Of a DNA stretch of 4,917 nt, positions 2,290 through 4,917 are shown piece by piece. This DNA is from a virus. Lineage: Duplodnaviria > Heunggongvirae > Uroviricota > Caudoviricetes. Within the stretch, counting starts at the first letter, position 1; every line of letters starts with the position of its first letter. Below the pieces are notes generated by a model that was not told the origin of the DNA, made no database searches, and saw only the letters and a list, made by a program, of their open reading frames with translations. The DNA is taken from IMG/VR virus record IMGVR_UViG_2534682255_000020. The stretch is one strand, 5' to 3'. Position numbers and translations under genes: made by a program.

Positions 2290-2715
2290 TTAATGCACAG
2301 CCAGAGTGTTTCCTGCCGGGCCACCACGATTCATCTGATCGAACAGAACGATCGCTGATGCAACGAAATCATCAATATCTTTCACCAGCCGTTCCTTCGT
2401 CTCTACCAACTCCCGAAAATAAGCGGAACTGTGGCTGCGCATTCGGGCCACCAGCGGAGGCGGCATCGCTTTTTCGATCGCTGGTAACAACGCCTGAATT
2501 TTTTTAACCGCATCAGGAGTGTCTTTCTCCACCCAGCGGAAAATTTTCTGAGTATTGCGAGCCATGGCTTCCGGATGGCTGTCGTCATACAGTTCCGGGA
2601 ACGTCATTCCCAGCTCGAAATACGCTTTGGTAATTTTCGCAGCCGGTACTTTTTCGCCGTCCGGATGCGCCCAGACATTCATCGCCATGCGGATGTGTTC
2701 ATGCTTGATTTTCAT
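2290..2715 (-). CDS. ydaT: YdaT-family protein (CII-like early regulator, sometimes annotated as toxin YdaT)
   Basis: 141-aa ORF beginning MKIKHEHI..., matching the N-terminus and length (about 140 aa) of Rac prophage YdaT as I recall it. Its ATG overlaps the stop of the upstream Cro-like gene (ATGA at 2715-2712). Confidence 0.8.
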   Translation of the reverse strand: MKIKHEHIRMAMNVWAHPDGEKVPAAKITKAYFELGMTFPELYDDSHPEAMARNTQKIFRWVEKDTPDAVKKIQALLPAIEKAMPPPLVARMRSHSSAYFRELVETKERLVKDIDDFVASAIVLFDQMNRGGPAGNTLAVH

Positions 2716-3014
2716 GAATCAACTCCATCAGATAAGCATGCACTACAATCACCTTCAGCATGAACTACATGTGTTTGCCCCAAACGAATGCCGCTCGCAT
2801 ACTCAGGCCAAATAAGCTCCCAATCATGGGGTCGTAGCTCCGCCCTACTTACTTGGCCTTCCGTCGCAGATTCGATCATAAGGGCGCGGGTTGGAGATAT
2901 AGCTGTTCGTCCAGACGCCATTTGCGATAAGTAAGATGGCGATACACCAAGTCTGGCCGCGAATTTCTTAGCATCACCAACCCTTAATGATTTAATAAAC
3001 TCTTTTAATGTCAT
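2712..3014 (-). CDS. ydaS: YdaS-family Cro-like HTH DNA-binding protein
   Basis: 100-aa ORF MTLKEFIKSLRVGDAKKFAARLGVSPSYLSQMASGRTAISPTRALMIESATEGQVSRAELRPHDW... with an HTH-like segment (AARLGVSPSYLSQMASGR). GAGGAAGG SD immediately upstream of ATG 3014-3012. First gene of the minus-strand operon, divergent from the regulator gene, as for cro. Confidence 0.8.
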   Translation of the reverse strand: MTLKEFIKSLRVGDAKKFAARLGVSPSYLSQMASGRTAISPTRALMIESATEGQVSRAELRPHDWELIWPEYASGIRLGQTHVVHAEGDCSACLSDGVDS

Positions 3015-3023
3015 ACCTTCCTC

Positions 3024-3090
3024 GGTTTAGTGTTTTTTTGCGAGTTTAGTGTTTAATAAACCATTAAGTCAAGTATTTGCTTGTTTAGTG
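3024..3090. promoter_or_regulatory. Operator-like direct repeats GTTTAGTG x3 in the divergent intergenic region
   Basis: GGTTTAGTGTTT 3024-3035, AGTTTAGTGTTT 3043-3054, TGTTTAGTGATT 3082-3093, arranged across the putative divergent promoters as in a lambdoid OR region. Confidence 0.5.
3043..3072 (-). promoter_or_regulatory. PR-like promoter for the ydaS-ydaT-rep-dnaC operon (-35 TTGACT, -10 TAAACT)
   Basis: On the minus strand: TTGACT (3072-3067), 18-nt spacer, TAAACT (3048-3043), followed by the leader and GAGGAAGG SD of the Cro-like gene. The -10 overlaps a GTTTAGTG operator-like repeat. Confidence 0.45.
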
Positions 3091-3105
3091 ATTACTAAAG
3101 ATAAT
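3077..3105 (+). promoter_or_regulatory. Candidate PRM-like promoter for the regulator gene (-10 GATAAT 3100-3105; weak -35 TTGCTT 3077-3082); possibly leaderless transcript
   Basis: GATAAT ends 6 nt before ATG 3112 and there is no SD upstream of that ATG, which would fit a leaderless mRNA as for lambda cI from PRM. The -35 is poor. Confidence 0.3.
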
Positions 3106-3111
3106 TACCAC

Positions 3112-3483
3112 ATGCAAAAAAAAGAAATTCGCCGTTTACGTCTCAAGGAGTGGTTTAAAGATAAAACTCTGCCACCCAAAGAGAAGAGCTACCTATCTCA
3201 ACTAATGAGTGGGAGAGCCTCGTTTGGAGAAAAGGCTGCCAGAAGAATAGAGCAAACATACGGGATGCCGGAAGGGTATCTGGATGCGGAATACGCAGAA
3301 CAACCGGGGGGTTCTCCACCACATGCAGGGTTAACGTCTAATCAACTGGAATTATTGCAGATTTTTTCAGCCTTCCCTGAGGATGAGCAACGCCAGATAA
3401 TCAGCGAGTTAAAGCAGAAAAAAGAATCAATGGAAGATCTCATAGCGAGATGGATTGCGGCGCAAAAATGCCGCCGCGCCTGA
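3112..3483 (+). CDS. paaR2: PaaR2-like transcriptional regulator (123 aa); first gene of the three-component TA operon and candidate prophage repressor
   Basis: ORF 3049-3483 (GTG start in the track); I prefer ATG 3112 (MQKKEIRRLRLKEWFKDKTL...). Contains an HTH-like segment (SYLSQLMSGRASFGEKAARRIEQTYGMPEGYLD). Lies directly upstream of the antitoxin and toxin genes, divergent from the Cro-like gene. Confidence 0.7.
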   Translation: MQKKEIRRLRLKEWFKDKTLPPKEKSYLSQLMSGRASFGEKAARRIEQTYGMPEGYLDAEYAEQPGGSPPHAGLTSNQLELLQIFSAFPEDEQRQIISELKQKKESMEDLIARWIAAQKCRRA

Positions 3484-3503
3484 GTTATAAAACCGGAGGA
3501 AAC

Positions 3504-3695
3504 ATGAATAGAGCCCTTTCACCAATGGTTTCTGAATTTGAAACCATTGAACAAGAAAACAGTTACAACGAATGGCTGCGTGCGAAAGTAGCAACGAGCC
3601 TTGCAGATCCGCGCCCAGCAATTCCCCATGACGAAGTTGAGCGCAGAATGGCAGAACGCTTTGCTAAGATGCGCAAGGAACGGAGCAAGCAGTAA
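3504..3695 (+). CDS. paaA2: PaaA2-type antitoxin (63 aa) of a ParE-family toxin
   Basis: MNRALSPMVSEFETIEQENSYNEWLRAKVATSLADPRPAIPHDEVERRMAERFAKMRKERSKQ; exactly 63 aa, charged and helix-prone, the length I recall for PaaA2. GGAGG SD 4 nt upstream of the ATG. Stop TAA 3693-3695 lies 1 nt before the toxin ATG. Confidence 0.8.
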   Translation: MNRALSPMVSEFETIEQENSYNEWLRAKVATSLADPRPAIPHDEVERRMAERFAKMRKERSKQ

Positions 3696-3696
3696 A

Positions 3697-3975
3697 ATGT
3701 TACCCGTGTTATGGCTTGAAAGCGCAGATACCGACCTAGATGATATAACTAGTTATATTGCTCGTTTCGACATAGATGCGGCTGAACGCTTATGGCAGCG
3801 ATTAAGGGGTTGTGTGCTGCCGTTATCCGAACATCCGTATTTATACCCACCAAGCGACAGAGTACCTGGCTTGCGTGAGATTGTAGCCCACCCTAACTAT
3901 ATAATTCTATACCGCGTAACAACATCAAGCGTTGAAGTAGTAAACGTGATCCACGCAAGACGCCAGTTTCCCTAA
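3697..3975 (+). CDS. parE2: ParE-family type II toxin (92 aa), ParE2-type
   Basis: MLPVLWLESADTDLDDITSYIARFDIDAAERLWQRLRGCVLPLSEHPYLYPPSDRVPGLREIVAHPNYIILYRVTTSSVEVVNVIHARRQFP; the C-terminal signature (GLREI...YRV...V.V.NVIHARR) is typical of RelE/ParE-fold toxins. Tightly coupled to the upstream antitoxin gene. Confidence 0.85.
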   Translation: MLPVLWLESADTDLDDITSYIARFDIDAAERLWQRLRGCVLPLSEHPYLYPPSDRVPGLREIVAHPNYIILYRVTTSSVEVVNVIHARRQFP

Positions 3976-3993
3976 CTTTCACTACCAATAGAA

Positions 3994-4040
3994 ACATAAC
4001 AACCGCAACGACTTTATCAAAAGCGTTGTGTTTGTTATGT
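3994..4040 (+). terminator. Imperfect 17-bp stem / 13-nt loop hairpin downstream of parE2 (candidate terminator of the TA operon)
   Basis: ACATAACAACCGCAACG (3994-4010) pairs with CGTTGTGTTTGTTATGT (4024-4040) with one mismatch and one G-U. It starts 19 nt after the parE2 stop. There is no U-tract immediately after the stem; a T-run lies at 4052-4057. Confidence 0.4.
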
Positions 4041-4045
4041 CCCGC

Positions 4046-4090
4046 GGTTTAGTTTTTACTTGACTTAAGTTTAATGTTTATTAAACTAAA
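4046..4090 (+). promoter_or_regulatory. PL-like outward promoter and operator module (GGTTTAGT repeat, -35 TTGACT 4060-4065, palindrome AGTTTAAT-gttt-ATTAAACT 4068-4087, -10 TAAACT 4082-4087)
   Basis: This segment is a near-identical inverted copy of the PR-like module at about 3043-3075 (shared TTTAGT, TTTAATAAAC, ATTAA and TTAAGTCAAGTA blocks). It contains a perfect 8-bp-arm palindrome. Confidence 0.45.
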
Positions 4091-4323
4091 AATACCAACC
4101 ACCCCGCCCCACAGAACGCAGGGAAATACTTCGAGTTACCCGGCAGTGGTCAGGGGTTAAGTAGCCAGCCCGAGGCGTATGAACATGACGGCAGGGTTCA
4201 ACTTTAATAACTATGCAGCAGTTTTTTGTTCCGCTACCCCGGCGTTAAGGGGAAACAGAGGGTTTCTCAGTGGGCGAAGTCAAACATCAGAATGGAAGGC
4301 ATCCCGGGATCGGCAAAGAAGCA

Positions 4324-4358
4324 GCAATGGCGCTTTATATTGACATCAGCGCCATTGC
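4324..4358 (-). terminator. Perfect 11-bp inverted repeat (GCAATGGCGCT - 13 nt - AGCGCCATTGC); candidate terminator of the zinc-ribbon gene or a protein-binding palindrome
   Basis: Stem 4324-4334 / 4348-4358, GC-rich, about 45 nt downstream of the minus-strand stop at 4405. On the minus-strand RNA it is followed by UGCUUCUUUGCCG, only moderately U-rich. Confidence 0.4.
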
Positions 4359-4404
4359 AGGACAGGTAAGAGTTATCAGAGCGGTAACTAAGCGGTATGC
4401 GCCT

Positions 4405-4605
4405 TTACTTCAGAAAGTCTCTGGTGAGTGCACCGAAGATATTGTCAACGATTTCGTCATCGAACTGCGAGGACTCATCTTCAGTTACAAGGTGACCACA
4501 ATTTTTGCAGATGGCTCCCGCGAAACTGTCAGAGCCCTGCGGCTTAAAGGATGTGTCAAAGACTTCGCCACCACATTCTGGGCAAGAAAACTTGATTGTA
4601 TTCAT
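4405..4605 (-). CDS. Small zinc-ribbon protein (66 aa; CPECGG ... CKNCGH), function unknown
   Basis: ORF 4405-4611 in the track (TTG start); I prefer ATG 4605-4603 (MNTIKFSCPECGGEVFDTSFKPQGSDSFAGAICKNCGHLVTEDESSQFDDEIVDNIFGALTRDFLK), preceded by a strong GAGAGGAA SD with a 7-nt spacer. Two CxxCG knuckles about 20 residues apart and an acidic C-terminal tail. First-position G is about 36% of codons. Confidence 0.6.
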   Translation of the reverse strand: MNTIKFSCPECGGEVFDTSFKPQGSDSFAGAICKNCGHLVTEDESSQFDDEIVDNIFGALTRDFLK

Positions 4606-4697
4606 AACCAATTTCCTCTCGAGTAACAGACCCCTCAGAGGATACCACCTCGCCTGACGTGGTTAAAAGCAGGCAACGCTAACCACAAGGAGCCGAC

Positions 4698-4916
4698 ATG
4701 CAGAAACGAGACCCCGTCATCATCGCGCCAGACTATACCGATGATGAACTTTATGAGTGGATGCACCAGAAAATTAATGCAGCGCAGGATCTGAAATGGG
4801 CCAATGAAGCCAGGGCTAAGCAGGCTGAAAATCTGTCCGCTCTGGAGCAGGATATCACCAATCTGGAAAAAGCAGCGGCATTAAGCATTGCCAGAATGAT
4901 TACATACCCGCGTTAA
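4698..4916 (+). CDS. Hypothetical protein (72 aa), likely first gene of the early-left-type operon
   Basis: ATG 4698 preceded by AAGGAG SD with a 5-nt spacer; MQKRDPVIIAPDYTDDELYEWMHQKINAAQDLKWANEARAKQAENLSALEQDITNLEKAAALSIARMITYPR; stop TAA 4914-4916. No family recognised. Confidence 0.5.
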   Translation: MQKRDPVIIAPDYTDDELYEWMHQKINAAQDLKWANEARAKQAENLSALEQDITNLEKAAALSIARMITYPR

Positions 4917-4917
4917 T

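Follow-up and report, generated by a model that had tools for sequence, protein, structure and literature searches.

Two similar segments flanking paaR2-paaA2-parE2 very probably correspond to the published PR933P/OR and PL933P/OL regions of a CP-933P-type lambdoid prophage

In phage lambda, the repressor gene lies between outward-firing early promoters that carry multiple operators for the repressor and Cro. The lambda promoter PRM is positioned back to back with PR and produces a leaderless repressor mRNA, accessory genes located between the repressor gene and OL (rexAB) are co-transcribed, a hairpin/terminator precedes OL, and the repressor forms octamers. A switch of this type has been described for prophage CP-933P (Sp12) of E. 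coli O157:H7 by Jurenas et al. (2021, mBio; PMC8630535), who named the promoters PR933P, PRM933P and PL933P and mapped the starts of the first two by 5' RACE. PaaR2 and YdaS were footprinted on the 97-bp paaR2-ydaS intergenic region, of which PaaR2 protects approximately 78 bp, and the operator consensus was given as GTTTAGTAA (PMC8630535). The same study found PaaR2 to be octameric in solution, named the operators OL1-3, and reported that PL933P is repressed about 100-fold by PaaR2 and YdaS; the published footprint covers OR, while the evidence for OL/PL is reporter repression (PMC8630535). The functions of ydaS (PMC8630535) and ydaT (PMC8630535 and PMC9986795) have also been described. Two further relatives, the Rac (racR / ydaS-ydaT) and Qin (dicA / dicC / dicB operon) prophages of E. 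coli K-12, have the same gene order as the sequence analysed here.

The window, the whole stretch of DNA that was analysed, comprises 4,917 nucleotides of a Caudoviricetes record (IMGVR_UViG_2534682255_000020). An earlier note based on the letters of this sequence had proposed that promoter-operator modules bracket a toxin-antitoxin (TA) cassette in an OR/OL-like architecture that mirrors lambda, with a single PaaR2-like repressor controlling both early operons. Both proposals agree with the published data: outward promoters and shared operators are described by Jurenas et al., and PaaR2 represses PR, PRM and PL in reporter assays (PMC8630535). Promoters and operators were placed on the window using the primer table of the mBio paper. 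Exact matches were found for 24 of the 26 published primers, the two failures being outside the immunity region, and all primers for PR, PRM, PL, PRE, EMSA and footprinting map exactly, as do those for paaR2. The mapped reporter fragments span 3976-4093 (PL) and 3039-3112 (PR/PRM). We are therefore highly confident that the two segments are the published PR933P/OR and PL933P/OL of a CP-933P-type lambdoid prophage, and that the bracket was already known.

The region 2700-4270 is 100% identical to E. coli chromosomes, including NZ_CP030767.1, and 529 genomes match at 99% or more. The window represents the same element as CP-933P (Sp12) of E. coli O157:H7, with which it shares hexamers, operator consensus, genes and regulators. 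In comparison with CP-933P of EDL933, however, the rep gene/region and the 3' end of ydaT differ, as the two unmatched primers also indicate, making the prophage backbone a mosaic variant; behaviour outside 2290-4917 is thus not simply transferable from the EDL933 prophage.

Three plus-strand genes lie between the two segments: paaR2 (3112-3483), encoding a CI-like repressor of 123 aa, the antitoxin gene paaA2 (3504-3695; Pfam PF21217 PaaA2, E = 1e-19) and the toxin gene parE2 (3697-3975; Pfam PF05016 ParE_toxin, E = 1.9e-16). A PaaA2-type antitoxin and a ParE toxin encoded 3' of an HTH regulator gene make up the three-gene paaR-paaA-parE module. Structures of the PaaR2 N-terminal domain are available (PDB 7nkv/8c3k/8c3l, 'Phage repressor protein CI'). 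A Pfam scan of PaaR2 gave no match and hence no S24 autocleavage (peptidase) domain, and the protein has been reported to be unresponsive to mitomycin C, i.e. not SOS-responsive; PaaR2 differs from the lambda repressor in both respects. On the minus strand, the Cro-like gene ydaS (2712-3014; Pfam YdaS_toxin, HTH_3 and a weak P22_Cro match) is the first gene of the PR operon and is followed by ydaT (2290-2715; Pfam YdaT_toxin), encoding a CII-like activator, so that Cro-like and CII-like genes head this operon as in lambda-type phages. A YdaT site, TTGATTN6AATCAA, was found at 2705-2722. On the PL side, a small zinc-ribbon gene (4405-4611, minus strand; ECs_2282 family in the PGAP annotation of the identical locus, with weak Pfam zinc-ribbon matches) is convergent with PL transcription. 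The annotated plus-strand genes of the PL operon begin with a ydfC-like one (4698-4916, annotated from the identical locus L005), and in that locus dicB and an exonuclease gene follow beyond the end of the window.

A promoter scan detected both of the outward-firing TTGACT/TAAACT pairs described in the earlier note, with spacers of 18 and 16 nt. PR933P (3043-3072, minus strand) consists of a -35 hexamer TTGACT at 3072-3067 and a -10 hexamer TAAACT at 3048-3043, separated by 18 nt; it drives ydaS-ydaT-rep-dnaC and is located inside the published PR933P-gfp fragment 3039-3112. PL933P (4060-4087, plus strand) has identical hexamers, TTGACT at 4060-4065 and TAAACT at 4082-4087, with a 16-nt spacer, and falls inside the published PL933P-gfp fragment 3976-4093. 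Its transcription is predicted from the sequence to start at approximately 4094. PRM933P (3077-3114, plus strand) was located by inspection of the sequence, with -35 TTGCTT at 3077-3082, a 17-nt spacer and -10 GATAAT at 3100-3105. Its transcript begins with the first base of the paaR2 start codon (A at 3112) and is leaderless, as determined by 5' RACE and N-terminal sequencing of the product (MQKKE) (PMC8630535).

The OR operator array (3025-3100) lies inside the published EMSA fragment 3015-3111 and contains 18-mers at 3025-3042, 3044-3061 (over the PR -10) and 3083-3100 (inside PRM), together with a degenerate unit at 3064-3081; the period is 19-20 bp. The OL operators (4047-4086) are 18-mers at 4047-4064, over the PL -35, and at 4069-4086, over the spacer and -10; the latter, GTTTAATGTTTATTAAAC, has 7-bp perfect arms. 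All five near-palindromic 18-mers (starting at 3025, 3044, 3083, 4047 and 4069) begin with GTTTAGT or GTTTAAT on the plus strand, and pairwise direct comparison gives matches at 12-16 of 18 positions. From their placement through the primer table, the individual 18-mers would correspond to the published IR1-4 and OL1-3.

The similarity between the two segments was then compared in both orientations. The best gapped inverted alignment has a score of 30; 28 of its 36 columns are identical, and its three indels add up to 7 nt. In 2000 composition-matched shuffles of both AT-rich segments, this score was never reached. The earlier description of inverted modules therefore holds as far as inverted similarity beyond chance at these positions is concerned, but "near-identical" overstates it. 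An ungapped repeat finder reports only 24 nt at 79%. Two exact words are shared: the 12-mer TTAAGTCAAGTA at 3064-3075, which contains the PR -35 and whose reverse complement occurs at 4057-4068 (plus-strand reading TACTTGACTTAA) around the PL -35, and the 10-mer TTTAATAAAC at 3052-3061 and on the minus strand at 4076-4085. Occurrences of the 12-mer and of an 11-bp palindrome in the window are those in OR and OL plus one in ydaS. The direct orientation gives a better alignment (3020-3061 against 4042-4086, score 37) because the segments contain an array of 18-bp near-palindromic operators; operator 3044, for example, matches operator 4069 at 16/18 positions directly and at 12/18 inverted. The truly inverted part is the -35 block alone, and the operators match better in direct orientation. 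The two modules thus differ from simple inverted copies, both in spacer length (18 versus 16 nt) and in the better direct conservation of their operators. Two observations are additional to the text of PMC8630535, namely the contrast between direct operators and an inverted -35 block, and a -10 hexamer built from an operator half-site.

The two regions are AT-rich (GC 0.31 and 0.27, compared with 0.49 for the window) and the highest shuffle score, 28, is close to the observed 30, as might be expected if two AT-rich intergenic regions resembled each other by chance. This explanation, which the earlier note had set as its own refutation in the form of short AT-rich words, is extremely improbable. 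In addition to the shuffle result, the exact 12-mer is present in two copies against an expectation of 0.01, and GTTTAGT occurs four times in the window against 0.42 expected, all four copies being confined to the OR and OL regions. The OL 19-mer GGTTTAGTTTTTACTTGAC is retained in Burkholderia phage vB_E177, whose repressor has a homologous N-terminal DNA-binding domain (65% identical), and published reporter assays show that one protein represses both promoters (PMC8630535).

The earlier note had also raised the possibility that the cassette is a swappable module framed by the repeat. Read as terminal inverted repeats or recombination ends, the approximately 30-bp repeats would delimit a mobile paaR2-paaA2-parE2 cassette exchanged as a unit; an inverted repeat does flank the three genes, and the cargo between PaaR2-type operator regions does vary in relatives. 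Among 633 E. coli genomes matching 3015-4093, however, 595 match as one collinear piece, and the other 38 share the TA genes alone, within other immunity regions. Neither inversion nor alternative cargo between the exact repeats was found among the 595 genomes; at megablast level there is none, and variation appears only in more distant relatives. The homology breakpoints lie away from the repeat ends, at 3503 and 3972 (the edges of the paaA2-parE2 coding sequence), with a further one at the PL start (4092). Neither the ORF list nor Pfam shows a transposase or integrase gene in the window, the repeats fall on promoters and operators established by experiment (PMC8630535), and the same bracket encloses a repressor gene alone in Rac and in Klebsiella phage 5. 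Exchange of the cassette as a mobile unit is consequently very unlikely. Inversion of the TA/repressor segment between the repeats, as an invertible switch, is less likely still: the repeats are inverted and Sp12 has been reported to be prone to large inversions, but all 593-595 full-length matches are single collinear pieces whose strand agrees with that of both flanks, indels interrupt the short repeat, and the window has no invertase gene. The repeats regulate and do not mobilise.

Taken together, the window very probably represents a lambdoid prophage immunity region of the CP-933P/Sp12 type, and the similar segments its two operator-promoter regions. From OR (3025-3105), PR933P directs leftward transcription of the Cro-like ydaS, the CII-like ydaT and then the genes for replication, and PRM933P, back to back with PR933P, produces a leaderless paaR2-paaA2-parE2 mRNA. 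From OL (4047-4087), PL933P fires rightward through a conserved leader into a ydfC...dicB...exonuclease operon. OR and OL share 18-bp near-palindromic operators with GTTTAGT/ACTAAAC-type half-sites; in both regions the -10 TAAACT is formed by the outer TAAAC of an operator plus T, with the -35 supplied by the shared TACTTGACTTAA block. A PaaR2 oligomer bound to these operators would thus keep RNA polymerase off the two early promoters, with YdaS competing for the same operators. The TA pair occupies a slot for cargo that extends from the repressor gene to OL, as rexAB does in lambda, and is co-transcribed from PRM. PaaR2 presumably binds OL directly, and a PaaR2 octamer may loop OL to OR across about 1 kb.

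This arrangement reproduces the lambda features outlined above: a repressor gene between outward early promoters with multiple operators, a PRM that is back to back with PR and yields a leaderless repressor mRNA, genes co-transcribed in the slot before OL, and an octamer-forming repressor. The OR array comprises four periodic 18-bp units, compared with three 17-bp operators in lambda, and OL and OR are separated by about 1.0 kb, compared with about 2.3 kb in lambda. Unlike lambda, the cargo is a ParE-type TA pair, and the CII analogue, YdaT, is structurally unrelated to lambda CII. An inverted-repeat search detected a long AT-rich hairpin at 3994-4040 (plus strand), between the parE2 stop codon and OL (RNA fold -24 kcal/mol, z = -4.68). 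Its position is that of the lambda immunity terminator, and the equivalent place is occupied by canonical intrinsic terminators in other immunity types; the hairpin probably ends or insulates the repressor operon.

The PL transcript begins with a conserved, non-coding leader (4092-4262, plus strand), which contains a stem-loop that covaries and whose apex, CAAUACNNCGAGUUA, is invariant, followed by an invariant stretch of 35 nt. In at least 12 other immunity types, a -35/-10 pair ends about 5 nt before the same leader. Matches were found in more than 3000 E. coli genomes and extend to Serratia, Superficieibacter, Arsenophonus and an Actinobacillus phage. An Rfam search of the whole window with E up to 1 gave no match to the leader, the sole match being a spurious miRNA on the 3994-4040 hairpin. 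A literature search using words from the leader sequence returned no matches, and the NAR 2025 paper on Rac contains nothing relevant on PL or the leader. A 54-aa ORF at 4179-4343 was rejected as a coding explanation, as indels in homologues break the reading frame. The fold of the single sequence is no more stable than that of shuffles (z = +1.57), and among E. coli sequences alone the changes are one-sided; covariation supports the structure only after divergent genera are added.

The leader shares its position with HK022 putL, a non-coding, structured RNA located directly 3' of the PL start in a lambdoid phage, which was located in NC_002166 by means of the pairing that PMC9378689 describes. 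Identity with HK022 put RNA was rejected. The leader is longer than putL and has no blastn similarity to it, and each locus carries a single copy; the PR side yielded no second one, in contrast to the paired putL and putR of HK022. It is conceivable, if somewhat doubtful, that the leader (~80-170 nt, from about +1) is an undescribed element that controls the early leftward operon in cis. One possibility is that it acts as a protein-independent, put-like antiterminator; another is that it controls Rho loading and so the expression of kil/dicB-type toxic genes. This unannotated leader is the one item that might deserve a study of its own.

The organisation of the window recurs in its relatives. 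Rac and Qin carry the same type of PL-side operon (ydfC, dicB/kil, exonuclease), and the Rac PL leader is 87% identical to that of the window and directly follows a TTGACA-17-TATAGT promoter. They differ from the window in repressor DNA-binding specificity and operators, which are of the TTAGGCAT type in Rac; Rac also has no TA cargo, and its OR-OL distance is approximately 0.7 kb. The PR and PL modules of Rac are likewise inverted copies, with a score of 45, and inverted scores of 32 and 39 were obtained for loci L002 and L003 (shuffle maxima 24-27). Across 91 IMG/VR loci, an OL partner lies 0.55-1.47 kb upstream in at least 12 immunity types other than that of the window, which thus show the same layout of divergent early promoters on either side of a repressor gene. 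In the sequences compared, operators co-vary with the repressor DNA-binding domain: L003, whose repressor N-terminal domain is nearly identical to that of PaaR2, has similar half-sites, and L002, whose repressor shares the C-terminal domain alone, has different operators. A Burkholderia relative with the same repressor N-terminal domain carries Peptidase_S24. In different relatives, the slot between the repressor gene and OL is empty or contains a TA pair, with or without a second regulator gene, or else an unknown gene; among those with PaaR2-type operators, it is empty or contains an additional HTH gene or a 216-aa ORF that is unrelated. The paaA2-parE2 pair alone is also found in other immunity regions.

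A published regulatory circuit was in this case rediscovered from raw sequence, and the result serves mainly to check that a first-stage reader can recognise a lambda-like switch. The comparisons with relatives support the interpretation already published, in which paaA2-parE2 is an accessory module that was inserted and is controlled by the immunity system, and they show the inverted PR/PL design to be a general one, shared by many heteroimmune prophages of the Rac and CP-933P kind.

The window belongs to a lambdoid prophage of the CP-933P/Sp12 type, of which it is the immunity region. On the minus strand, the ORF list and Pfam place a truncated IstB/DnaC-like gene (up to 451), a replication-type ORF of 400 aa (458-1660), ydaT (2290-2715) and ydaS (2712-3014); on the plus strand lie paaR2 (3112-3483; ORF list), paaA2 (3504-3695; PF21217) and parE2 (3697-3975; PF05016). 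After parE2 come an intergenic stretch and a small minus-strand zinc-ribbon gene (4405-4611; ORF list, Pfam), followed by a plus-strand ydfC-like gene (4698-4916; ORF list). The PGAP annotation of an identical locus matches this gene order and extends it rightward with dicB and an exonuclease gene. Over positions 2700-4270 the window has 100% identity to E. coli chromosomes, with a match of at least 99% in 529 genomes, and the region is present in phage Evi at 98.4%. Of 5426 complete E. coli genomes, only 4 cover 80% or more of the window. The rep segment (520-2290) is unlike the O157-type CP-933P locus, whereas the flanks are about 98% alike, indicating that the prophage backbone is a mosaic. 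At 1023-1114 and 1329-1381, the rep-like ORF contains GAAGCCCCTT-type repeat units (D1, I1) and an 18-nt tandem CTGTTC repeat, giving a QEQE tract in the protein; these may be iteron-like origin repeats within the replication gene.

The earlier note had described inverted, near-identical promoter/operator modules firing outward on either side of the toxin-antitoxin (TA) genes. A promoter scan agreed with the outward-firing promoters, and the hexamers were confirmed: TTGACT-18-TAAACT at 3072..3043 (minus strand), in the operator region between ydaS and paaR2 (OR), and TTGACT-16-TAAACT at 4060..4087 (plus strand), in the operator region 3' of parE2 (OL). An exact 12-mer, TTAAGTCAAGTA, occurs at 3064-3075 and inverted at 4057-4068 (0.01 expected), and TTTAATAAAC with the 11-bp palindrome GTTTATTAAAC is present in both regions, plus one imperfect copy within ydaS. 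The best gapped inverted alignment scored 30 (28 identities in 36 columns, three indels), a score matched by 0 of 2000 composition-matched shuffles (maximum 28). The inverted repeat does exist and is not random, but "near-identical" goes too far, the ungapped repeat finder returning just 24 nt at 79%. The imperfect palindrome in the first codons of ydaS (GTTTATTAAAT, minus strand 2990-3000) lies within a 21-nt, 86% inverted repeat pairing 2983-3003 with 3048-3068, and may be an additional operator or coincidental.

The similarity of OR and OL in direct orientation was overlooked in the earlier note. Direct alignment of 3020-3061 with 4042-4086 scored 37, above the inverted alignment, because both regions contain 18-bp near-palindromic operators, an array in which each unit reads GTTTAGT or GTTTAAT at its plus-strand start (OR: 3025, 3044, 3083; OL: 4047, 4069). 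Pairwise, these operators match directly at 12-16 of 18 positions; sites 3044 and 4069 share 16/18 directly and 12/18 when inverted. GTTTAGT has four copies in the window (0.42 expected), only in OR and OL. At each promoter the -10 TAAACT consists of one operator's outer TAAAC plus a T, and the -35 comes from an inverted TACTTGACTTAA block, so the modules are inverted as promoter-plus-operator units and are not simple inverted copies. The observation was thus partly confirmed, being real yet gapped and more complex than had been stated.

The OR/OL-like interpretation, with a single repressor over both early operons, is correct but previously published (PMC8630535), and the primers tabulated there map exactly on the window (PL fragment 3976-4093, PR/PRM fragment 3039-3112, EMSA fragment 3015-3111). 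Jurenas et al. (2021, mBio; PMC8630535) describe PaaR2, YdaS and YdaT as analogues of CI, Cro and CII, report 5' RACE starts for PR933P and PRM933P and a leaderless paaR2, show about 100-fold repression of a PL933P-gfp fusion by PaaR2 and likewise by YdaS, and draw the parallel to OL/OR of lambda, repressor octamers and looping included. According to a later structural paper (PMC9986795), paaA2-parE2 take the place of rexA and rexB; the YdaT site given there, TTGATTN6AATCAA, was found at 2705-2722. Direct binding of PaaR2 to OL, the position of the PL start and OL-OR looping are predicted.

The suggestion that the repeats frame a swappable cassette was not supported. Among 633 E. coli genomes matching 3015-4093, 595 carried 80% or more of that interval at one site, all full-length matches listed were unbroken and collinear on one strand, and none of the 595 showed inversion or alternative cargo between the repeats. 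The other 38 had only 3503-3972, the paaA2-parE2 coding sequences, in common, and the right-hand mosaic boundary lies at the PL start, not at the repeat. The repeats are regulatory sites. By itself, the TA pair also occurs, with 86-93% identity, in other immunity regions (for example 2501-2969 in each of the related loci L002 and L003), which have their own repressor, operators and terminator and differ in their HTH repressors. In L003 the pair comes after two repressor-like genes in tandem, a PaaR2 homologue (74%) and then a 153-aa HTH protein with 63% identity to the L002 regulator. Cargo does differ between relatives whose operators are of the PaaR2 type: the repressor-to-OL slot is empty in Klebsiella phage 5, holds the TA pair in the window and, in L003, a second HTH gene followed by the TA pair, and in Burkholderia phage vB_E177 holds a 216-aa ORF without a Pfam match. 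What varies is therefore the cargo of a rexAB-like slot and, as a separate unit, the entire immunity region. Between parE2 and OL, an AT-rich hairpin (3994-4040; 22-nt arms, -24 kcal/mol, z = -4.68) with no canonical U-tract right after the stem occupies the position of canonical intrinsic terminators in other immunity types.

Across these relatives, operator sequence tracks the DNA-binding domain carried by the repressor. The L003 repressor, nearly identical to PaaR2 in its N-terminal domain, is accompanied by TTTAGT/ACTAAA-type half-sites at both OR and OL, and the L002 repressor, with only the C-terminal domain in common (53% over 55 aa), by unrelated operators. Klebsiella phage 5 LV-2017, with a 45% PaaR2 homologue, has GTTTATAAAATACTAAAC at OR and GTTTAGTAATGATTAAAC at OL. 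In vB_E177 (L008 2462-3900), a PaaR2-type N-terminal domain (65% identity) is fused to Peptidase_S24, OR is laid out as in the window, and the OL 19-mer GGTTTAGTTTTTACTTGAC is exactly the window's.

The PL leader (4092-4262, plus strand) is non-coding and unannotated, begins at about +1 of PL and is common to at least 12 heteroimmune prophage types, with one copy per locus (L001 4001-4155, L002 3080-3245, L003 3086-3250, L129 2501-2657, and L130-L133). Positions 4092-4255 match more than 3000 E. coli genomes, unannotated in them; in K-12 the sequence lies between racR and ydaG in Rac. A core pattern and blastn identified homologues in Serratia, Superficieibacter, Arsenophonus and an Actinobacillus phage, likewise downstream of a PL-like promoter. 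No match was found in Rfam or in a literature search by sequence, and no similarity to HK022 putL. The first ~30 nt are very C-rich. RNAalifold on a 20-sequence MAFFT alignment predicted a 5' stem-loop closing an invariant CAAUACNNCGAGUUA, after which comes a 35-nt stretch that is likewise invariant; 90.8% of cells pair on this structure. Thirteen pairs changed on both sides (for example E. coli GCAGGG/CCCGGC versus Serratia ACGAAG/CUUCGU), against 5.8 +/- 1.7 in shuffles (0/500 reached 13) and 4-5 in slid controls, and G-U pairs were consistent with the plus strand, the PL sense. With few independent lineages and a structure drawn from the same alignment, this is suggestive of a conserved RNA structure, not proof. 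Further right, a 118-aa plus-strand ORF (4270-4626), annotated in the phage Evi record, overlaps the zinc-ribbon gene on the opposite strand, where PGAP instead calls an ECs_2282-family gene; if the latter is real, transcription from PL would run antisense through it.

At 119 IMG/VR loci with the PL leader, the 85 nt upstream were of many unrelated types (75 distinct sequences), in each of which a -35/-10 pair can be recognised together with palindromic operators particular to that type, ending about 5 nt short of ATACCAACC in the leader. Where the upstream sequence was long enough (91 loci), the segment that best matched OL in inverted orientation lay 0.55-1.47 kb upstream in most immunity types, at a distance particular to the type; in a few loci, inverted matches were only weak or scattered. 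Explicit inverted comparison of OR with OL scored 45 in Rac, 32 in L002 and 39 in L003 (shuffle maxima 24-27). These scores and the upstream OL partners across types indicate that prophages of this group generally have the OR/OL bracket, like lambda.
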